Shown: positions 3,267-30,518 of the stretch, piece by piece
Numbering within the stretch: position 1 is the stretch's first letter
Layout of the letters: each line of letters begins with the position of its first letter
Assembly (NCBI GenBank): GCA_000146465.1
Contig: CP001947.1
DNA: 64,000 nt
Direction: 5' to 3' (one strand)
The notes under the pieces: generated by a model
What the model saw: only the letters and a program-made list of their open reading frames with translations
What the model was told of the DNA's origin: nothing
Database searches by the model: none
Position numbers and translations under genes: made by a program

Positions 3267-3610
3267 ACCTTGATAGGTTCCTGTATGGATGAAAATAAAC
3301 ACTTTTCTGTCCAATTACATATTAGAATTGTATTCTTCCAAGCCCTAATGACCGAGCCGAGGGTTGAAGATGTGTATCGCCCGTCTTTCCGCAAATGCAT
3401 TCTGAGGACCATGGGAGCATGCTTTATATCCGGCTATCTTGTGGGCTCTTCTTTTCGATTGGCTGCCGGAAGTAGATGCGACTACGGCCAATACCTTGCA
3501 AACAAGCTTTGTGCTGCTGGGGTGTGTTTCCAACTTGGAAGAAGACTGACTGCCGAGGTGGTAGGAGGGGTAAAAAAGAATTTTATTTCGTGGCGGCTTT
3601 CTCCCTGGAA

Positions 3611-5368
3611 ATGAAGCTATTTGGGCAGGAGTTGTCGACATATATGTATGGAAGGATACTGGACCGAAAGTTTATAACTCCTTCGGGATCATATGAGATA
3701 GAGCCGTTGGAGATTGCTTCTGGGATGCATCCAGTGAGATACAACGGGAAGATAGAAATCTTTTATGTGTCCCCGATATTCAACAGCTATCTTGTGTCCC
3801 GCGAAGAGAATGTTAATGTACTGTTTTCAGCAGACGGAAAGGTTACAATCACCAACGAGGATATAGACAAAGATACTCTGTACACTTTTCGGATTGTCCG
3901 GGAGACGAGCGATCTTAGAGTTGCCGAGATCTACAAGTTTGATACATTTTATCCTGGATTCAAGACGACTGGAGAAGTCAAGTGGAAGATAGGGAAGGAT
4001 GGGCGGAGGATTTACACAGTACAGACCAAATATGGGGATGGAACTCTGATTATGCAGAACAACAAAGAAAAGAATATTGTAAGTGTTCTTCTGTATAAAA
4101 AGGACAAGGAACTTCATTTCGTACAGGTCGACGACCCAATAAGCGGTATTGTAAAGATGACTGTGACGGCAGAGATGGGCAACAAATATGGGGTGAGGGA
4201 TCGTAATGTACGAGGATTTCTTATCACAAACAACACTTATAAGACTGGGGATTCTGTGGCATGCACAATTAAGGAAGTCTGGCTGGGAAACTACTTGTTT
4301 ACAGAGTATTTTGAGCTAGGGATAGGATCTATTATTGAAGCTCGTGTTAAGAGCTATGGAAAGAACAAGATATATCTTGAATATAAAGGCCACGAAGGAT
4401 ACATTTTGATTTCTGAATCCGAAGGAAGAAGATACGGAAACAATGTGAGGGGAACTGTGTATGACATAAAAGATGGTTTGTTCCTGCTGAGCACCAAGAG
4501 GATACCTGAATTGGAAAGAAAAGAGAAGGGGATTGATCTATCTGTTCCCTTCGATATCTCTGATCAGACAGAGGAATCAAGTGACTCTTTAGAAGAGGAT
4601 GTGGATGGAGTGAGCAGGTCTTTAGGGGCCGAAAGAAAAAGAAGCAAGACAGTAACAGAGGACGATATCTTAATGGACATCCACGCACATCCTGGAGAAG
4701 CGATTCCTGTGATCAAATACATACAATACAAAATCGAAATTGGAGAGGAAGGAGGACCCGAAGAGATTTTCCATAAGTTCCTTCCTATGATTGAGGGGGA
4801 AGAAAAGGATAAGCTTTGTATTTCGTTTGTGAACTACCTAATGTTTGTCAAGGATCCAGATTGCCTGAAGGTGATAAAGAAGTTGTCGAAGATATGCTCG
4901 GAACGATTCCTGGATGCTGTTGCATCCAACACCGACGACATCCAGGTCCTTAGGCTCTATTTTGAAAGGACGGAGACAAGGAAGTCCTTTGGAATGTACT
5001 TGGATGGGCTATTCAAAGCAGACCGAGAGGAAGCCATGAGACTTGTTGAAAAGCATAGAGAGCTCCTTGGCGTATCGATTGGTATAATATACAAGCATTG
5101 CGAGAACCCAAGAGCATGGGTGGAGAAGCTATTGGTTGACAAGAAGGATGTTTGGATGTCTTACATCCGAAACGAAAAAGGAACGTATCTTCGGAGCCTT
5201 TACAGAAGAGTTGTTGACAAGAAGTGGAAGGTGAGTGACATGAAGGAGTTCTACAAGATGTGGATGGATTATGAGAAGGAGAACAACGGAAATATAGAAG
5301 AAGTAAAGCTAAGAGCCAGAGAATATGTTGGGAGCATCAAGAACAATTCCGTGCATAGACAAGCATAA
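3611..5368 (+). CDS. hypothetical protein; possible S1-like OB folds plus C-terminal HAT/TPR-like repeats (Rrp5-like?)
   Basis: ORF track starts at 3476 but the first plausible ATG is 3611 (MKLFGQ...); repeated beta-rich segments; C-terminal W/Y-rich helical repeats (YIRNE, YRRVV, MWMDYEKEN). Confidence 0.45.
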   Translation: MKLFGQELSTYMYGRILDRKFITPSGSYEIEPLEIASGMHPVRYNGKIEIFYVSPIFNSYLVSREENVNVLFSADGKVTITNEDIDKDTLYTFRIVRETSDLRVAEIYKFDTFYPGFKTTGEVKWKIGKDGRRIYTVQTKYGDGTLIMQNNKEKNIVSVLLYKKDKELHFVQVDDPISGIVKMTVTAEMGNKYGVRDRNVRGFLITNNTYKTGDSVACTIKEVWLGNYLFTEYFELGIGSIIEARVKSYGKNKIYLEYKGHEGYILISESEGRRYGNNVRGTVYDIKDGLFLLSTKRIPELERKEKGIDLSVPFDISDQTEESSDSLEEDVDGVSRSLGAERKRSKTVTEDDILMDIHAHPGEAIPVIKYIQYKIEIGEEGGPEEIFHKFLPMIEGEEKDKLCISFVNYLMFVKDPDCLKVIKKLSKICSERFLDAVASNTDDIQVLRLYFERTETRKSFGMYLDGLFKADREEAMRLVEKHRELLGVSIGIIYKHCENPRAWVEKLLVDKKDVWMSYIRNEKGTYLRSLYRRVVDKKWKVSDMKEFYKMWMDYEKENNGNIEEVKLRAREYVGSIKNNSVHRQA

Positions 5369-8510: not shown

Positions 8511-11072
8511 ATGCTTGATAGAGAGCACATTGTTCCTACTCCGATTGTAGAAAATCATCAACCTCTGGATGCTTTGATAGAGGAGTTGGCTCTGCTGAGG
8601 GGAGACAGGCTGTGTAAAAGCCTAGAAAGCATTCTGTGTGTAACTAGGCCTTTTACCCCAGAGCAGATGTGCAGGGTAGACAGGATTGTTTCAAGTCTCC
8701 ACAATGACCATAAAGAAGCCTGGTTTTACCAGAGGATATTTGAACTGGCTTTAAAGATGTATGGCTTTGGAAACGACTGGAGAAACCGGCTTCGAATTTG
8801 CAAACTCCATGAAAAACACAAGTTTAGAATTCACAGCAACGTCCACGAGTTTTCGTATACGGGGAGTATAACCGAGATACCTAGGATATGTAAAGGGTTC
8901 ATGGAAAACAGGAAGACCATCTACGACAGAGTAAATGTTCTTGGGTACTGTGTACTCGAGATCTCTGGGATGAATGATGGGGAGGAGTATGAGGGGGAGG
9001 ATGACATCTTCTATCTTATAGAGTATGTCTATAGAAGGGACTTGAAGACACTTCTGAGGTGGGCAAAGAATGTCCGAGTGATGAATGACTGGTCACTGCT
9101 GTACCTGGCAAACTATCCAGATTTCTTATACACAGAACTGAAGTATCTGAGCAACCCGATGATAATTAAGGAAATCATATTACAGCAGAAATCACACAGG
9201 CTTTTTGACTTTCTTTTCATTAAGATTTCGATGTTGTTTCCAAGGGAAGAGATGGCCAACCTGTTGGCCAATAGCTACGACAAGTCCGGAGTGGAATACA
9301 CAACCCGTATATTCTGGAAACTGTTTGAAGATAATGAAGAGAATGGGGAAAAGATTCTCAAGAAGTTCATCAGAAACAGAAAAGCAAAGGAGTTTGGAGG
9401 CATGTTTTATGAAATGTGTACAAGGATCGATGGAGATTATGCCGAGGCTATTGGTGTGTGCATTGAAAAGGTGCACCTGATCAAGGATAAGTGTCTTGAA
9501 GACCTTATGAATTCTCACTACTGGGCGCACGTCACCCACAGGTACGAGGACTTTTCTGTGCTCACAAGGCTTTTGATAGAGAGAGGCCTTCTGCCCAAGA
9601 AGGAATTCGACTTTCTTCAGGGCCACATGGATGCTACCCTTGAGAATCTTCGGAAAATCTTGTTTTTAGTCCAAGAGGCGCCTTCCAGACGAGAGGACGT
9701 GAGAAATGCCGTGATTGAGATTATTAAGAGAATGTTCAGGAAAAGGATGAAATGCGAGAAATGCAGGGAAAAGAAAATAGAAAAGACCTTAAAGCTGTGT
9801 CCTGTTGGGTCTCTTATTCAAAAGGGATCTGAAAGAGGGGAAGAGGACGGGTTACTGGTTATGTACGAGATACTGGAGGCTCTTCGAGATCTAGACATCC
9901 CAAAAAGGACACTCCAGATGCTTTCTCTAATGAATCCCGATCTTTTCTGCAAGATTGTTACCAACGATACTAAATACGACTGCTTTTTCATCAAGTGCCT
10001 GAATATCATCCTGAAAGATCTTGAAGGGAGGTTCCGATGGGTTGTAAGCGACATTGTAAAAATGAAAATATTTGATTCCGATGGTTACTGGGAGCAGAGT
10101 GTCAGAAAATCCTTGAAGCTTGGGAGCTTGTGGAAGGCAATGGCTTCGCATGGAGTGTTGTGGGAGAAAGACCAACCCGGGATTTTGGCCCTGAAGAAGA
10201 ACGGACTCTATTCTCTCAAGAACATTGTAATCCACTCGGACTCGAGCTTCTTTGCCGAAAATGAATGTTCTTCGGAGGTGATTGAAAAGAAGGGATGGTC
10301 CTTTTTGGAGGACAAGAGGAATCTTGGATATATGAAAATGCTTGACGATAAGACAAAGCTGAGATATCTTATTAAAGAACTAGAAGGGAGAAGAGATCCC
10401 GAAAGCTTAAAAGTGGTGAAGGAGTTACTTGTATCCTCCTCCCGAGTTACGGATGGAATGGTGTTCAAGAATTCGTCTATTGTGTTCAAGGTGGCTAAAG
10501 TCTTTACATTGTATCTCTCTTTTGGGCAATATGAAGAGATAGGTGAGCAGGCGTTTGTTGAACTGGAGGGAGAGAGAGACAACCTGAAGATTGGACGAAC
10601 AAATGGAAAGCTGTTTATGAAGAAACTGAGGGAGGGAAAGGAAGAACATGTTCTTTTGGGGGAAGATGACAAGCCAAAAATGAAGGAGACTTTCAGCTTC
10701 TGGTACAAATCCTCGAAGCTCTCGTTTTGCCTGAATGGGAAGATGTACACCTCCGAAATTAGGAATGTGGATGTAATAAGAATAGGAGGAGGGCTTCGAG
10801 GAATAATAGAAAAGATATTTCTGTGCGAGTCGCATCTTCCTAAAAAGTACACTCTTGGAAGTTCTCGCCAGTCGTCTTTGTATATTAGGGAGCTGTCCAA
10901 GATAGAGAAGTTTCTGGCATATAAGAACATAAGTGGAGTATACATGGACAGCACTACGCCGTACTTCATGAACAGGAGACTCGACGTCAAGGTAAACAAT
11001 GTGATAGACAACAAAAATGTTTATTGGATGTGCCATAGAAAAGTCTTGAGTCTATTGAAAGAAAGGCTGTAA
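8511..11072 (+). CDS. hypothetical protein (853 aa)
   Basis: Long ORF with an ATG start; no recognisable domains. Confidence 0.5.
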   Translation: MLDREHIVPTPIVENHQPLDALIEELALLRGDRLCKSLESILCVTRPFTPEQMCRVDRIVSSLHNDHKEAWFYQRIFELALKMYGFGNDWRNRLRICKLHEKHKFRIHSNVHEFSYTGSITEIPRICKGFMENRKTIYDRVNVLGYCVLEISGMNDGEEYEGEDDIFYLIEYVYRRDLKTLLRWAKNVRVMNDWSLLYLANYPDFLYTELKYLSNPMIIKEIILQQKSHRLFDFLFIKISMLFPREEMANLLANSYDKSGVEYTTRIFWKLFEDNEENGEKILKKFIRNRKAKEFGGMFYEMCTRIDGDYAEAIGVCIEKVHLIKDKCLEDLMNSHYWAHVTHRYEDFSVLTRLLIERGLLPKKEFDFLQGHMDATLENLRKILFLVQEAPSRREDVRNAVIEIIKRMFRKRMKCEKCREKKIEKTLKLCPVGSLIQKGSERGEEDGLLVMYEILEALRDLDIPKRTLQMLSLMNPDLFCKIVTNDTKYDCFFIKCLNIILKDLEGRFRWVVSDIVKMKIFDSDGYWEQSVRKSLKLGSLWKAMASHGVLWEKDQPGILALKKNGLYSLKNIVIHSDSSFFAENECSSEVIEKKGWSFLEDKRNLGYMKMLDDKTKLRYLIKELEGRRDPESLKVVKELLVSSSRVTDGMVFKNSSIVFKVAKVFTLYLSFGQYEEIGEQAFVELEGERDNLKIGRTNGKLFMKKLREGKEEHVLLGEDDKPKMKETFSFWYKSSKLSFCLNGKMYTSEIRNVDVIRIGGGLRGIIEKIFLCESHLPKKYTLGSSRQSSLYIRELSKIEKFLAYKNISGVYMDSTTPYFMNRRLDVKVNNVIDNKNVYWMCHRKVLSLLKERL

Positions 11073-15678: not shown

Positions 15679-16194
15679 TCAGTTCTTCTTTGTGATGACT
15701 GCCTCCATTACTTTGAAAAAAAAGGTCTTTACCTGGCACTCGTCGAATGTTATCTCTTCGCTGAGGAAGTCTGGAAGATCCACGTTTCTAGACTCAATAA
15801 GCTTGTAGACATAAGAATTCTCCTCGGGTGTCAACACAAATCTAATGAATTTTGTAACATTGTTCGACACAATCTCGTGGGTTACCTCATAGCTTCCATC
15901 ATTCTCGACTATGTCAAACCCAACAAACTTCTTGTACAACAGTGCATCCGTCTTCAAAGACCTTAGATACTCATTCTCCTTCTTATAGCTCTCTATCAAA
16001 TCCTCTTCCTTCATCTTCATTTCAATGAGGATCTGTTTGTATCTAGATGCAGAATCAAGATCTCTCCTCTCCTCTGCACATACTGCCTTCTGGGGCCTGT
16101 TCTCTTTGGAATCAGAGGCTTCGACATCCTTTGTGGGTGTCTTTGTCCCCTTTCTTGGCGTCTTAAACGTTATTCTCTTCCTAGGTGTCTTCAT
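15679..16194 (-). CDS. hypothetical protein with basic KTPRK-repeat N-terminus
   Basis: 171 aa, ATG start. Confidence 0.45.
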   Translation of the reverse strand: MKTPRKRITFKTPRKGTKTPTKDVEASDSKENRPQKAVCAEERRDLDSASRYKQILIEMKMKEEDLIESYKKENEYLRSLKTDALLYKKFVGFDIVENDGSYEVTHEIVSNNVTKFIRFVLTPEENSYVYKLIESRNVDLPDFLSEEITFDECQVKTFFFKVMEAVITKKN

Positions 16195-19805: not shown

Positions 19806-20786
19806 TCAGAAGTCGACATCTATCCTGAACGAATCATTTCCATTATCTATCCCCACAAATGCCTTCTGGTACTGTGACTCTCTCTTGTCGAAGAAGTTTG
19901 TCTTTCCAACCAAAGAGATGTTCTCCATAAAATCAAACGGGTTGGGAGTATGGTATATCTTCTCCTCCTCAAGATTCTCTAGGAGAGTATCGGCTACAAA
20001 CTCTATATATTTGCACATCAACTGGCAGTTCATCCCTATAAGATCCACTGGAAGACTTTCACTCAGAAACCTCTTTTCAACTTCGACTGCATCCATCACC
20101 ACCTCCTTTACTCGCTTGCACTTCTGTTTCAGGTAACGTCTATGCAAAAGGCATGCAAACTCACAGTGCAGACCCTCGTCCCTGCTTATCAGCTCGTTCG
20201 AAAACGTTAGTCCAGGCATCAGCCCTCTCTTCTTCAGCCAGAATATAGATGCAAATGACCCAGAAAAGAATATACCCTCCACACAGGCAAACGCCACAAG
20301 CCTTGTTGCAAAGTCAGAATTCTTATCCTCAATCCATTTTATTGCCCAATCGGCCTTGTCTTTCACAGAGGGGATAGTTTTGACTGCATTAAAAAGGAAC
20401 TTCTTCTGTTCTCCGTCCCTTACATACGTGTCAATCAGCAGGCTGTACATCTCACTGTGGATGTTCTCAATTGCAATCTGGAACCCATAGAATAGCTTTG
20501 CTTCAAGCATCTTGACCTCGCTGGAGAACCGCTCCACCAGATTCAGATTGACAATTCCATCAGACGCCGCAAAGAATGCAAGAACATTGGAGATAAAGTG
20601 CTTCTCCTTTGGATTTAACTTCTTCCAATCTTCAATGTCTTTGTCGAGGAGAACCTCTTCCACAGTCCAGAACGAGCTTTCAGCCTTCTTGTACATCCTC
20701 CATACATCTTCGTGTTGTATGGGAAAGAGTACAAACCTCTCTTCTTTAGGATCCAATAGTGGCTCAATTTTTTCTTCGCAACTCAT
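19806..20786 (-). CDS. RNR2: ribonucleotide reductase small subunit (R2)
   Basis: Full-length R2 with the di-iron/tyrosyl-radical region ([41 protein letters not shown]). Confidence 0.92.
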
Positions 20787-21064
20787 AAGCTATTTGACAG
20801 AATCTGCTTATATACTTTTTTTTGGAGGGAATATCTCCCTCAAAATAATAATCATCTAAATTCAATTTTACAATCCTTGCTCGATCTAATTTCGTCGATC
20901 CCCTCTTGGCATTTGGCTTCACCCACCTAAGCCATGGCGGGAGAGCGGCCCCAGAACCTAAGCTAGGAATGACTATTTATTGTAAATAATGTTCCCTATA
21001 AAAGGAACACTGGTATTATTTATATTTACTGCACCCTATATATTATAACTATTATTGAATGTTT

Positions 21065-21717
21065 TTACTCAAGATCAATAAATTCCTTTCTCATGAATGG
21101 TAATATACGTTTTCTCGCATTTGCAAACCAATTATCTATTTGAGACAATTTTAGTCCTGTTTCTTTAGAAAGTATTTTTTTTCTATTTTAGTTGGATAAG
21201 GATTAGAAAGATGCTCCTTTAGCCATCTTCTTAGCATTTTGGACACTTCTCTTGGAAAATTAGCTCTCCTAGAATGAGGACTACTTCCGAGCCAACCATT
21301 AGTTGATGAATTATTTCTTATATAACTCTCATACCTGTATAAATCCCTCTCGTTCATTACATTCATCATATCTATGATGTTGTCCATTTTTCTTTGGAGT
21401 TTGGTGCATTCTGAATCAAATATAGAAACAAGATTTTTTTCAAATAGTAATGCATACTTAAATTTCTCAGCAATTAGAAACAAAGCTAGCTTGTGTGATA
21501 AGTTATTCGGAAAAAAATGTGTATTGGAGCATGTTTCGTAATTTTTCCGAATTTTTAATAGGACTTCCTTCAAATGATGTTCATTTATCATTCCTTGAAA
21601 ATATTGTTCTTTTGCGATTAATATTTGGCCAATATGCTCCACCATATCTAGAAAACTATCGGCATTTAAAACAAAAATTGATAAACTCGTAATTAACGTT
21701 ATAAAAATAATATCCAT
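21065..21717 (-). pseudogene. TALE-class homeodomain gene interrupted by a 1-nt frameshift in an A8 run (pseudogene or homopolymer error)
   Basis: ORF 21151..21717 ends ...FPREVSKMLRRWLKEHLSNPYPTKIEKKYFLKKQD*, i.e. helix 1 plus the PYP TALE loop. The -1 frame continues ...ILSKETGLKLSQIDNWFANARKRILPFMRKEFIDLE*, i.e. helix 2 plus the helix 3 WFxNxR motif, to a stop at about 21065. The two frames meet at the T8 run on the + strand at 21175-21182. Confidence 0.65.
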
Positions 21718-21797
21718 ATCACTTCAGAAGACTATTATAACTTGTCAAACTCATCAAGACAAGATAAAGTATAAAATAAAAAGATATTTTACAAAAT

Positions 21798-23276
21798 ATG
21801 AATTTAGGATGGCTACTGAAGATTCCAATGCGAAAACATTCAAACAGGAAAATAATTGTATATGAAAATAGCATGGCTTCGTTTTACTCTAGGACGTTTG
21901 AAATAATTGAAGAGCATATTTCTACCATATCCAATAATGAACATCATAGAGATGGATTAGTAGAGTATATAGAAATGTTATCATATTTTCAAATCTCTAA
22001 TGAAGATCATGAGAAAAAAGAAGAAATTAATAGACAAAGGCAAAGCTTACTTAAGAAATTTAGATCCCTAACCTTAATTAGTATTTCAAAAGTAGAAAAA
22101 GACAATAGGAAAATATTGAAATCTTATCATGGAGTATTACATCTTTTAGATTTGATTGGTTTTGGTGTAAATCCTTATGAAATGGTTTTAAAAAAATGGT
22201 TAAACACCAATTGTATGATAATTAGTGATGTAGAAAGACATGCCATAAGAGGAAATTTCGAAAAAGTGATCGAAGCATATCCCTATTTAAACGAGGCTAT
22301 TAATAATTATTTAAACTTAAGGAAGACGTCAGGAAATGAATACAGGAAATTATTTGCGTCTTGGAAGATCAAATATTTTAAAATTATTCCCAATAATTTA
22401 AAGGAAATTCTTTTTCATAATATTAACGGGGATGGTATTGACTGGATTGATCATATTTGCTATAAATCGTTTTGTATGAACACACAAAGGAATGGGATCG
22501 ATCTTATAAATAGGGAAGATGAAATCGGAATGATATTAACACATAATTATGATGCACTAATAGAACGTTCTAAAGGATGGATTAGACTAGTATTATTGTT
22601 CGTTTGCCCTCATACAAAATTTGATTTATTTCCAAGAGCATTTGAATCTATCGGGAAATTCCTATATTTATCAGATTATCGCTTATCTTTGAGATTTTTT
22701 TCGTACACAGAGAAACTAATCTTATACTTTAATCACTTTTCCTGTAAGTTTTCTAAAAGTCTTTCGGATTTAGAATTCTTGGTTGAGTATTCCAAAAAAA
22801 ATAATATTAATGGAAATTCTTTGTTAAAAGAGTACTGCCAAAATCTTCTTTCTAATCAAGAGTATTATAATCTTTTTTATGTTATATCTAAATATGAGCT
22901 CTGCGATATAAACATAAATTCCGAGTTTATAGAATTCTGTATTAGAAATACAACAATACTAACTGAAAACTTCACTAAAACATCGTATGGAATTTTTATT
23001 GGAAACTTTAGGAGATTTCTTAGTGGAATAAAAGTTGGTGAAGGTGAAATTATAGCATTGATAAATTCAGATTATTTTTCAGCTCTAGATAGTAGAACAT
23101 TTGAAATAATACTAGAGAACAGATGCATTACTGTGAACATGCTTTATAAGCTTTTAGAAGGAATGTTAAATGTGGAAAGAAAAGGGAAGTCTAATCCCAT
23201 ATTGAAAAGCAAAAAAGCTTTAGTTCTCAATAAGTTAGCGGAATCTACAGGTCTCGGGAAGGACATATCAATTTAA
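21798..23276 (+). CDS. hypothetical AT-rich lineage-specific protein (492 aa)
   Basis: ATG start; Asn/Ile/Lys/Phe-rich composition; no homeodomain or other recognisable domain; transcribed divergently from the HD gene with an 80 bp intergenic gap. Confidence 0.45.
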   Translation: MNLGWLLKIPMRKHSNRKIIVYENSMASFYSRTFEIIEEHISTISNNEHHRDGLVEYIEMLSYFQISNEDHEKKEEINRQRQSLLKKFRSLTLISISKVEKDNRKILKSYHGVLHLLDLIGFGVNPYEMVLKKWLNTNCMIISDVERHAIRGNFEKVIEAYPYLNEAINNYLNLRKTSGNEYRKLFASWKIKYFKIIPNNLKEILFHNINGDGIDWIDHICYKSFCMNTQRNGIDLINREDEIGMILTHNYDALIERSKGWIRLVLLFVCPHTKFDLFPRAFESIGKFLYLSDYRLSLRFFSYTEKLILYFNHFSCKFSKSLSDLEFLVEYSKKNNINGNSLLKEYCQNLLSNQEYYNLFYVISKYELCDININSEFIEFCIRNTTILTENFTKTSYGIFIGNFRRFLSGIKVGEGEIIALINSDYFSALDSRTFEIILENRCITVNMLYKLLEGMLNVERKGKSNPILKSKKALVLNKLAESTGLGKDISI

Positions 23277-23614
23277 ACTATTAAACTGGTAGTATCAATT
23301 TAAATTACAAATACTTTGGAAATATCTCCTTCTGTTTATTAACTTTTCAAGGGATTGCCGTTTTTTAAAACAAACATATAAGAGTGATGATACATAACTT
23401 CTTTTTGTATTCTTAAGTAAATTCATGTAAAATTTTAGAATAAAATGTCCGAAGATATTTGAGTTCCTATAGCAATAGCAGAAACACACCCTATCTCAAT
23501 TCATTATACTTCCTGGGAATCCATACTTTAAAGATTTAAAGTAAAACTAAAAAGGAAGGGGGTGTTTATTTCAATAGATTAAAATCGAAATATTGTATTT
23601 TTAAACTAAGAGAT

Positions 23615-27962: not shown

Positions 27963-30299
27963 ATGGGGATCAAGGATACGTTTGGAATGGAAGGGATAAG
28001 AAGACTCTTTGAAAGAGGTTCGTTTGTGGAAAATCCCCTGGGCAAGTCATTGATTGTGAAGCATCTTTCGTCTCTGAATTCCAAGAGGCAGATCAAAGGG
28101 GCAAGGAGTCTGGTGAGCAGGATGCAGCGTGGAGAAGATCTCTTTGAGCTCTGTAATGATGTCATCAAGGCGATGGACACAAGAGATCCCGAGCTCAAGA
28201 GAATGCTCAACCTGTATCTGGTGAAGTATGTGCAAGGATGGCCTGCAAAGCAACTGATATGTATCAACACCGTACTGAAGGATCTTGGAGACGTAAATAG
28301 CGAAATGCGACATTGTGCAATTCAAGATAGTGGGCTGCTAGGAGACGGAGCAGTGATCAAAAACTATGTTAATCCTCTCAAGGAGCATGGGGTTAGTGCG
28401 CTGCCTGAGACAAGAAGGAAGGTAGCAGACTCATTGAGGAACTATTTCAGGAAAGATCCCCGTTTGTTCCATGACGAAGACCTTTGCGATCTACTGAGAG
28501 ACTTGGTGTTTGACGAGGATGCAGGTGTGTGTGCATCTGCACTAAATAGCGTTCAAGCCATAGAGAAGGAGACAAGAGTCCTTTCTACCAAAGACATCTA
28601 TATCCTCTTTGGAAAGGCCATTAAGACAGGAAACAGGGAAATCCTTGGAAGTCTTCTGGAAGTGATGAATAACAGAGCAGAGGACTTCCTTGATGCTGCT
28701 CCATTGGTTCCATTGTTGAGATCGTGTAGCCTTCGGATATTCCGTCAGGCATCTGATCTGGCCATTTCTATCGATCCCTCTTACAGGCAAATTGTGTTTG
28801 ATCACCTCAAAGGGTTTCTTAATTCAAAGGACGAGGAGTTGTATCTTGTACTTGACTATGCCGAGTCTCTTCTTGATCATGTGAAGTACGACAATTCATG
28901 CTTTGCCATCTACCACAGCGACAGGAAATACAATAAGATAAAGAAGCTTAAGATTCTATTCAAAAGGCTGGATAGCATCTCTGTGTCGGAAATAAAGAAC
29001 CAATGCAGAGATGAAGAACTTCTTGGAGTGATTTTGAAGGAGTCTCTTATTGCAGACTATCTTATAGAGGAGCCGTTCAAATACATACGCAAGGCAGATG
29101 AAATAATAAGAGTTCTGTACAGTGAAGATGCTATTTCAGAAAAATGGTCGGGACTGATTGAAAAATTCTTGATGAGTGCGAGGGAAGTGCAGGAAAGGCA
29201 GAAGTATATCTATCTCTGTGGGAGATATGTCCACGAGATTCCTTCAGAAGTTATAAGAATCCAAAGTCTGTACATTCCTTCTCTAGTCAACGAGACGGCC
29301 AGGTTTTATCTTAGCCTCCATAGAAGAGGAGTGGTAAATCTGGAAGAGACCCTAGGGCACCTCCGTCTGGTACAGAAGAGCCCAAAGGACAGAATCCGAG
29401 CAGTGATCAATGAACTGAAGACCCGGGGAATAGGAGTGTTTTCAGCATTTTGTGACATCAAAAAGCGGGATCTGAACAGCACTAAAGCCTGTAGATCTGT
29501 TGGGATAAAGTATGAGGAAAAGACCACTTCGATACTCGATGGCAAGCCATACTATGGACTAAGTGAAGATGGATTTCTAAGGGAAAATTCTGGAGAAGCA
29601 TTGGAGAAGTTCCGCGAAGAGGAGAAATCTCTACGTGAAGAATGCTCTTCTCTTGAAAGAGGAGAGACACAAACAACCGAGCTCTCTTCTGCAGGAGAGA
29701 GTAGTCCATTTCCAGGAAATGGCTCACAATGTCCAGCTCTGTTCTTGGGCAAGGAAGACGAGGAAAATGTTTGGCTGAGGTTTGCTGAATCTCATCGTCC
29801 TGTTGAAGGTAAGAGGGCCAAAGAGAAGGAATCCACCAGGCTGATAGACACCCTTGGGCTAAAAGGGATTCTTGCCATTGCTGGTGAAGAGGTTATACTT
29901 CAAGTGGATGTGCTAGAAAGTCCATTGGTTATTTATTACAGGTGTAAGGGGCGACTCAACAGTATCAAAATAGACGGCGAAGGGACTTTTTCTCTTTTCA
30001 CAATAGGTCTTCCAGTAATCAACTCGGAGTTCAGCCTAACAATAGGAAAGTCCAACTACGAAATCTACCTGGGAATCAGAAGCTTGATGAATCCATTTGA
30101 GTGCTCGAAGGATGAGTTTGAAAGGAAATTCCATGAGCTCAGAGACCACATACTCCTAGGGGAAATCGACACTGGGAAGGCATATGCCGTCGACAACCAT
30201 CGGTTCTCATTTTCTGTCCTTGGCTCAAAATTCTACGGAAAGCATCTCAATGGACAGGCAATCCTCAAAGGCCCGAGGAAGCTGTTGGGACTCTTTTAA
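27963..30299 (+). CDS. adaptor-protein complex large subunit (adaptin N-terminal domain, beta-adaptin-like)
   Basis: KRMLNLYLVKYVQGWPAKQLICINTVLKDLGDVNSEMRHCAIQ and LCDLLRDLVFDEDAGVCASALNSVQAI align to the beta-adaptin HEAT region; ORF-track start 27939 is TTG, first ATG about 27963. Confidence 0.65.
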   Translation: MGIKDTFGMEGIRRLFERGSFVENPLGKSLIVKHLSSLNSKRQIKGARSLVSRMQRGEDLFELCNDVIKAMDTRDPELKRMLNLYLVKYVQGWPAKQLICINTVLKDLGDVNSEMRHCAIQDSGLLGDGAVIKNYVNPLKEHGVSALPETRRKVADSLRNYFRKDPRLFHDEDLCDLLRDLVFDEDAGVCASALNSVQAIEKETRVLSTKDIYILFGKAIKTGNREILGSLLEVMNNRAEDFLDAAPLVPLLRSCSLRIFRQASDLAISIDPSYRQIVFDHLKGFLNSKDEELYLVLDYAESLLDHVKYDNSCFAIYHSDRKYNKIKKLKILFKRLDSISVSEIKNQCRDEELLGVILKESLIADYLIEEPFKYIRKADEIIRVLYSEDAISEKWSGLIEKFLMSAREVQERQKYIYLCGRYVHEIPSEVIRIQSLYIPSLVNETARFYLSLHRRGVVNLEETLGHLRLVQKSPKDRIRAVINELKTRGIGVFSAFCDIKKRDLNSTKACRSVGIKYEEKTTSILDGKPYYGLSEDGFLRENSGEALEKFREEEKSLREECSSLERGETQTTELSSAGESSPFPGNGSQCPALFLGKEDEENVWLRFAESHRPVEGKRAKEKESTRLIDTLGLKGILAIAGEEVILQVDVLESPLVIYYRCKGRLNSIKIDGEGTFSLFTIGLPVINSEFSLTIGKSNYEIYLGIRSLMNPFECSKDEFERKFHELRDHILLGEIDTGKAYAVDNHRFSFSVLGSKFYGKHLNGQAILKGPRKLLGLF

Positions 30300-30518
30300 A
30301 TATATCGAATAAACAGGTAAGAGATAAAGAATTTATTCCCAGTAAATCCAGGTTCTGTCTTAGTGGCATTGGAAATGCCCTTCCACCCGATACCACGTGG
30401 AGGTGCAGAGATACATCAGGCACGAAGTCAGATTTTGCTACATCGTCAGTTTTCAGTCTGGGGCGGCAAATATCATCACTCTCCGGGGGTAACAAATACA
30501 AATGTTTTATATAGACAA

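Follow-up and report, generated by a model that had tools for sequence, protein, structure and literature searches.

Frameshifted genes have been reported in other Encephalitozoon species, and in bacterial endosymbionts frameshifts within poly-A runs are tolerated by means of transcriptional slippage. TALE proteins that lack a homeodomain also exist, among them the Homothorax isoforms of Drosophila and the plant protein KNATM, and these are made by regulated splicing or encoded by separate genes. The locus described here lies on chromosome VI of Encephalitozoon intestinalis and was analyzed within a window of 64 kb (43% G+C), by which we mean the whole stretch of DNA under study. As in young pseudogenes created by homopolymer frameshifts, a 1-nt change in a run of A is its sole lesion and the downstream frame is intact; it differs from those pseudogenes in that the allele is polymorphic among near-identical isolates, and any rescue by slippage is here hypothetical. 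Like the homeodomain-less forms of Homothorax and KNATM, the truncated product keeps an N-terminal region and has lost the DNA-binding homeodomain, but it arises by a frameshift, which those forms do not. We consider it probable, at roughly three chances in four, that this is a genuine and very young loss-of-function allele of the homeobox gene HD-12, produced by contraction of a homopolymer and still polymorphic among isolates.

A sequence-only reading of the window had described a 188-aa open reading frame that carries homeodomain helix 1 and the PYP loop and stops after a run of eight A, with the signature of helices 2 and 3 continuing in the -1 frame, and its coordinates and frames proved accurate. 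The mechanical 188-aa frame occupies 21151..21717 on the minus strand and ends in ...PYPTKIEKKYFLKKQD and a stop (over other spans, KIEKKYFLKKQD followed by TAA, or ...NPYPTKIEKKYFLKKQD and a stop). The -1 frame, which takes over at the run's last A, encodes ILSKETGLKLSQIDNWFANARKRILPFMRKEFIDLE and terminates at 21065. The three-residue TALE insertion P-Y-P between helix 1 and helix 2 is present as NPYPT, and WFANAR is encoded past the A8 run, in the -1 frame; the WFxNxR signature (Asn51, Arg55) thus does not share a frame with helix 1 in the window. It does share one in the A9 allele of the assembly GCA_051312795.1 and of the sequencing run ERR13302946. The earlier proposal that one more A in the run (T8 on the plus strand, 21175-21182) would yield a continuous 217-aa TALE protein held good: from the mechanical start, a single added A gives a 217-aa product with a full homeodomain, to which the protein of an intact, naturally occurring A9 allele is 100% identical.

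In a Pfam check of this repaired translation, which is equally that of the A9 allele, Homeobox_KN (PF05920) matched over model positions 1-40 of 40 with 69.6 bits (cut-off 24; E 2e-19) and the Homeodomain model with 28.4 bits; the unrepaired frame matched Homeobox_KN at model positions 1-22 alone, with 26.1 bits. Scores of this size put the homeobox match of the repaired product well outside the reach of chance. Among proteins of solved structure, the homeodomains of TGIF, PKNOX and MEIS matched best (E 3e-16 to 1e-13), and the animal proteins of this group (PDB 2dmn, 6fqp, 1x2n, 4xrm) have the homeodomain in common with the repaired product. The alignment to TGIF2LX has no gap and that to TGIF1 has one, which falls beyond the homeodomain; both extend through helix 1, the PYP loop, helix 2 and WFxNARrRilP, and within the homeodomain the alignments to TGIF and MEIS, which have the same loop, are ungapped. 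Modeled with AlphaFold from the four orthologues, the homeodomain (pLDDT about 80-87) has its helix 1 in residues 132-144, its helix 2 in 153-163 and its helix 3 in 167-188; confidence in the N-terminal helical region of the model is low. The homeodomain was the sole domain that Pfam found in the repaired product, with no MEINOX-type N-terminal domain. Unlike animal MEIS-type proteins, then, the protein has no recognizable N-terminal domain, and it is called TGIF/MEIS-like on grounds of similarity. By virtue of its family, the intact protein would be expected to recognize specific DNA sequences in the manner of TGIF/MEIS factors.

A protein search with the repaired product matched four proteins: E. 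intestinalis P7C65_06s1g09050 (193 aa, 100% identity), the E. cuniculi “Homeobox protein HD-12” (P0002; GenBank name “MEI2-related protein”; 193 aa, 56%), an E. hellem homeodomain protein (192 aa, 52%) and a protein from the Logan assembly of SRR21633403 (191 aa, 47%), so that the intact orthologues in other species stand at 47-56% identity. The 56% identity to E. cuniculi HD-12 spans 89% of the query, that is, all 193 residues from the conserved start. Sequence similarity and gene neighborhood identify this E. intestinalis gene as orthologous to that of E. cuniculi HD-12, a TALE homeodomain protein that resembles TGIF and MEIS: HD-12 is the best full-length match, and E. intestinalis shares with E. 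cuniculi and E. hellem an M16 peptidase gene on the upstream side and, on the downstream side, the genes for the ribonucleotide reductase (RNR) small subunit and PTPA. At 52-56% identity, the E. cuniculi and E. hellem orthologues resemble the window copy in start, near-equal length, synteny, low G+C and the A-rich Glu-Lys-Lys codons with which helix 2 opens; the window copy differs from E. cuniculi HD-12 in having A8 rather than A9 and in being truncated. The HD-12 gene has a G+C content of 28-31% in all four species (including E. cuniculi, whose genome has about 47%), and the window profile shows a low-G+C island (31-36%) between positions 20 and 24 kb.

The spacer between the homeobox and RNR genes holds further features. 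Rfam gave no match to a non-coding RNA in 20700-21900, and a short G+C-rich patch at 20900-20965 (minus strand) within this spacer, likewise unmatched in Rfam, shows little conservation in E. cuniculi and E. hellem. Upstream of the RNR small-subunit gene, an element at 20807-20841 (minus strand), reading GAGGGAGAT ATTCCCTCC AAAAAAAA GTATATAAG, is near-invariant in E. intestinalis, E. cuniculi and E. hellem, whereas the remaining spacer is not; an inverted repeat, an A8 run and a TATA-like box follow one another in it, and it probably serves as the promoter of RNR2. On the other side of the locus, directly downstream of the M16 peptidase gene, lies a non-coding element of about 120 nt (23443-23560, minus strand) that is conserved in four species, with counterparts at ~3510-3655, ~3500-3640 and ~3660-3800 of the corresponding loci from the other species (L005, L006 and L007, respectively). 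Its fold consists of two hairpins, after which come ACA and three bases, with four compensatory pairs, and it aligns over the full length of the H/ACA snoRNA model SNORA75 at a sub-threshold 23.8 bits (E 0.16), which makes it a candidate for an unannotated H/ACA snoRNA.

The hydrophobic N-terminus of the 188-aa frame, MDIIFITLITSLSIFVLNADSFLD (21646..21717, minus strand), had been suspected of lying upstream of the true start, and rightly so: it is a spurious extension and really 5' flank. The true start is M25 of the mechanical frame (ATG at 21643-21645), where both the orthologues and the deposited annotations begin, and none of the orthologues examined has an in-frame ATG upstream of the M25 equivalent. 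Since all of them start at this position, the real gene comprises 193 codons when intact and 164 in the window. Within the supposed extension, 10-17 nt upstream of the start, E. intestinalis, E. cuniculi and E. hellem share a TTTAAATnCCGAT motif; in the window it takes the form TTTAAATGCCGAT (21658..21670, minus strand), 12 nt before the start codon and conserved in E. cuniculi and E. hellem, and this upstream motif is probably a core promoter or start-site element.

The whole locus (Eint_060650; 21065..21645, minus strand), counted from the conserved Met codon through the stop codon in the -1 frame, has 581 nt in the window as against 582 nt (193 codons and a stop) in the intact allele. Its present reading frame (21151..21645, minus strand) encodes a 164-aa truncated product, MVEHIGQ...KKYFLKKQD, which has been deposited exactly so and consists of 157 native residues, then seven aberrant ones (YFLKKQD), then TAA. 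The native part takes in the N-terminal helical region, homeodomain helix 1, the PYP loop and the first turn of helix 2. What remains of helix 2, the recognition helix 3 (WFANARKR) and the C-terminal tail are encoded by an orphaned 3' part in the -1 frame (21065..21175, minus strand; 36 codons and a stop), which is open and identical to that of the intact allele, and in which 24 of the 36 residues are invariant across four species. That an intron is not the cause of the split, as the earlier reading had concluded for the GTAAGT type seen elsewhere in the window, follows from the ungapped alignment of the homeodomain to the orthologues and to TGIF across the site: there is nothing to splice out, and splicing could not make good a deficit of 1 nt.

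The split falls in the A8 run of the coding strand (T8 on the plus strand, 21175..21182, the gene being on the minus strand), the only long run in the region; the intact allele and E. cuniculi have A9 here. The longest homopolymers anywhere in the 64-kb window are of 8 nt, so that an A9 run, being longer than every homopolymer in it, would be the most slippage-prone site available; other A8/T8 tracts of the window lie at 15716, 16557, 20816 and 22794. Comparison with related strains and species, which had been proposed as a way of deciding the matter, brought to light the A9 allele within E. intestinalis itself. The sequence CM119899.1 of GCA_051312795.1 (99.99% identity to the window) matches at 10,581 of 10,582 positions, and the one difference is a ninth A in the run; over 21.5 kb this assembly shows two further SNPs, G>T at 28698 and T>C at 30353. 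The Logan assembly of an unrelated run, ERR13302946, has A9 together with both of these SNPs and a private SNP at 29314, so A9 occurs on haplotypes distinct from that of the window. A DNA search by way of the neighboring 492-aa gene returned these two A9 contigs alone, and a scan of JGI metagenome contigs for more natural alleles, with a pattern spanning the run, gave no match; nor did we find a paper on this A8/A9 polymorphism. As for the SNPs themselves, G>T at 28698 is Ala246Ser in an adaptin gene, T>C at 30353 is intergenic and the private change at 29314 (G>T) is Ser451Ile; the E. intestinalis samples fall into three haplotypes that differ by about one SNP per 10 kb over 21.5 kb.

The exact truncated 164-aa product stands under four accessions, ADM11673.2, UTX45410.1, KAL7345567.1 and KAL7349475.1. 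The first source is the 2010 assembly of ATCC 50506, from 40x Illumina coverage with Sanger finishing (PMC4355639); the second is the telomere-to-telomere assembly of the same strain, from nanopore data corrected iteratively with Illumina reads and Pilon (PMC10158259); and the third and fourth are isolates from the trio ATCC 50507, 50603 and 50651, for each of which SPAdes built a de novo assembly out of >300x Illumina coverage (PMC12697097). Two of these last three isolates have the truncated product and one the intact protein, so that the reference strain ATCC 50506 and two further ATCC isolates carry A8, and one ATCC isolate and ERR13302946 carry A9. Allele states were read from consensus assemblies, and A8 in the four deposited records is known from their protein sequences.

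These records bear directly on the first of the three explanations that the earlier reading had offered, namely that the organism truly has A9 and an intact gene and that the A8 of the window is a miscall. Homopolymers are classic sites of indel errors and the run is the sole difference from GCA_051312795.1 across 10.5 kb, which is what such an error would look like. The same truncated product, however, recurs in four records from independent Illumina-based or Illumina-polished data, 12 of the 13 long homopolymers in the 21.5-kb overlap agree between the assemblies and this run alone differs, and in both of the independent data sets that have A9 it comes together with the two linked SNPs, as would be expected of a difference between strains. 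Given four concordant Illumina-based consensus sequences and the linkage of A9 to SNPs, we regard a miscall as very unlikely.

The same data speak to the possibility that A8 and A9 copies are mixed within each culture or diploid nucleus, which would leave no isolate a true null. The nuclei of Encephalitozoon are considered at least diploid, and the cultures of these isolates are uncloned; moreover, a run of 8-9 nt mutates fast, and minor alleles are hidden by consensus assemblies. Against such mixing, four consensus sequences concur on A8 and two on A9, the split between them tracks SNP haplotype rather than falling at random, and we found no report of heterozygosity for the HD-12 locus. The consensus assemblies point to A8 being homogeneous at the level of the reads in each isolate, and within-isolate heterogeneity is in our view unlikely.

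The direction of the change can be read from the relatives. E. cuniculi has GAA AAA AAA ATG at the run (A9, in frame), E. hellem has GAA AAA AAA GTA (A8 and then G, in frame) and the species of SRR21633403 has GAA AAG AAG ATG. With a single frame in all of these, a single reading frame is ancestral and the A8 of the window is derived. The two E. intestinalis alleles differ nowhere else in the gene, a search for further disabling mutations having turned up none besides the run, and with one lesion and 36 orphaned codons that are open and conserved, the allele is very young and not a decayed pseudogene. An old pseudogene was considered and rejected, there being one lesion and a downstream part that is open and identical to that of the intact allele.

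The allele most likely came about as follows. The ancestral GAA AAA AAA ATA (A9) lost one A, presumably by replication slippage; the frame is now broken at codon 158, where helix 2 begins, and seven codons further on translation stops. The resulting 164-aa product lacks most of helix 2 and all of helix 3 and should therefore be incapable of homeodomain-type DNA binding. With the helix-3 contacts lost, a null or strongly hypomorphic allele is the simplest reading, and the truncated protein is presumably non-functional. Very recent pseudogenization is thus the best supported of the three options that the sequence-only reading had left standing, with the run as the sole lesion, A9 as the ancestral state and an intact allele extant.

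The presence of A8 in three of the four cultured isolates suggests that HD-12 is dispensable under culture conditions. Still, a loss of function in three of four isolates is somewhat surprising in a genome with about 12 homeobox genes and possibly leaves room for residual function, which might come from the homeodomain-less product or from slippage. By analogy with the homeodomain-less TALE forms, an HD-12 fragment of this kind could in principle retain a partner-binding role.

Slippage would rescue the gene if the A8 allele still gave useful full-length protein, either by RNA polymerase adding an A or by a -1 ribosomal shift, both of which lead to the native ...IEKKILSK.... The zero frame of the A8 allele reads GA A_AAA_AAA T, formally a -1 slippery heptamer (X_XXY_YYZ), and a -1 shift on A_AAA_AAA restores the native protein residue for residue; the A8 allele is common among isolates and its 3' part is undamaged, although an undamaged 3' part is equally expected after a very recent mutation. 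The two-frame arrangement is absent in E. cuniculi, E. hellem, the species of SRR21633403 and the A9 allele, all of which are single-frame, and since it is not conserved there is no evolved programmed frameshift signal. In a pseudoknot-free fold, the RNA downstream of the run is no more stable than expected (MFE -15 kcal/mol over 111 nt, z-score -1.7) and has as its sole hairpin a weak one that starts about 17 nt away; a convincing stimulatory structure, which would be expected 5-9 nt downstream, did not appear in this fold. In the literature that we searched, programmed slippage was not reported for microsporidia. Low-level, unprogrammed leakage of the frameshift is plausible, and a rescue that yields useful amounts of protein is improbable.

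A further conceivable role for the run is that of a reversible switch, on/off or low/high, for a developmental transcription factor. If this were so, replication slippage would toggle the gene between clonal lineages in the manner of a bacterial contingency locus or, in another form, A8 lineages would keep a low level of useful full-length protein through polymerase slippage or -1 ribosomal slippage. Three Encephalitozoon species retain A8 or A9 at the run, and more isolates have the null-looking allele than the intact one, both of which are compatible with a switch; we nevertheless hold a switch to be very doubtful.

The setting of the gene had also raised the question of mating type. HD-12 and its 492-aa neighbor are transcribed divergently across 152 bp, and basidiomycete MAT loci are defined by pairs of TALE and non-TALE homeodomain genes, so that the locus could be imagined as part of a homeodomain-based mating-type-like locus, a divergent pair with one allele switched off. 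An HD-type MAT-like locus has been proposed for E. cuniculi (Burglin 2003, as cited in PMC2866331), and Lee et al. list as candidate MAT homeobox clusters ECU03_0600/0610, ECU04_0970/1030 and ECU10_1470/1480, without idiomorphs (PMC2866331). HD-12, in contrast, is on chromosome VI, outside these proposed clusters on chromosomes 3, 4 and 10. The 492-aa neighbor (21798..23276, plus strand) has no homeodomain and no Pfam match, it is missing from the interval between the M16 peptidase gene and HD-12 in the three other species, and a search of all six frames of the 64-kb window found no second WFxNxR motif. Nor are the alleles, which differ by one base, the strongly divergent idiomorphs of a MAT locus. 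The locus thus has neither the gene arrangement nor the pattern of alleles by which a homeodomain MAT locus is defined, and the mating-type framing of the earlier reading can be given hardly any credence.

The 492-aa gene (Eint_060660, 21798-23276, plus strand) is itself peculiar. It is an extra gene between the M16 peptidase gene and the HD-12 orthologue in E. intestinalis as compared with E. cuniculi and E. hellem, and in these two and the species of SRR21633403 the gap measures about 380-550 bp without it. Its G+C content is 28.7%, against 43-46% in the flanking genes. A word-based search with its product returned itself alone and an exhaustive search 38 distant relatives of about 500 aa, of which the seven that were scanned contained no Pfam domain; a single-sequence AlphaFold model reached a pLDDT of 40, too low to base a fold search on, and the UniRef label is a putative “Nup85.” Eint_060660 looks like a lineage-specific insertion or relocation.

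A very young loss-of-function allele of HD-12, which we continue to favor, is an event of an ordinary kind, a homopolymer frameshift that is a real within-species polymorphism and not mechanistically new. Its immediate consequence concerns the reference: in the E. intestinalis reference proteome (GenBank, UniProt), Eint_060650 appears as an ordinary 164-aa “KN homeodomain” protein, when it is actually the frameshifted allele, and homeobox counts and orthology tables built on that reference should allow for this. Near-isogenic isolates with and without an intact HD-12 amount to a natural knock-out, in a group of organisms, the microsporidia, that have almost no genetic tools. Finally, the locus presents gene loss at its first step, in a genome that is usually described as reduced to the limit.
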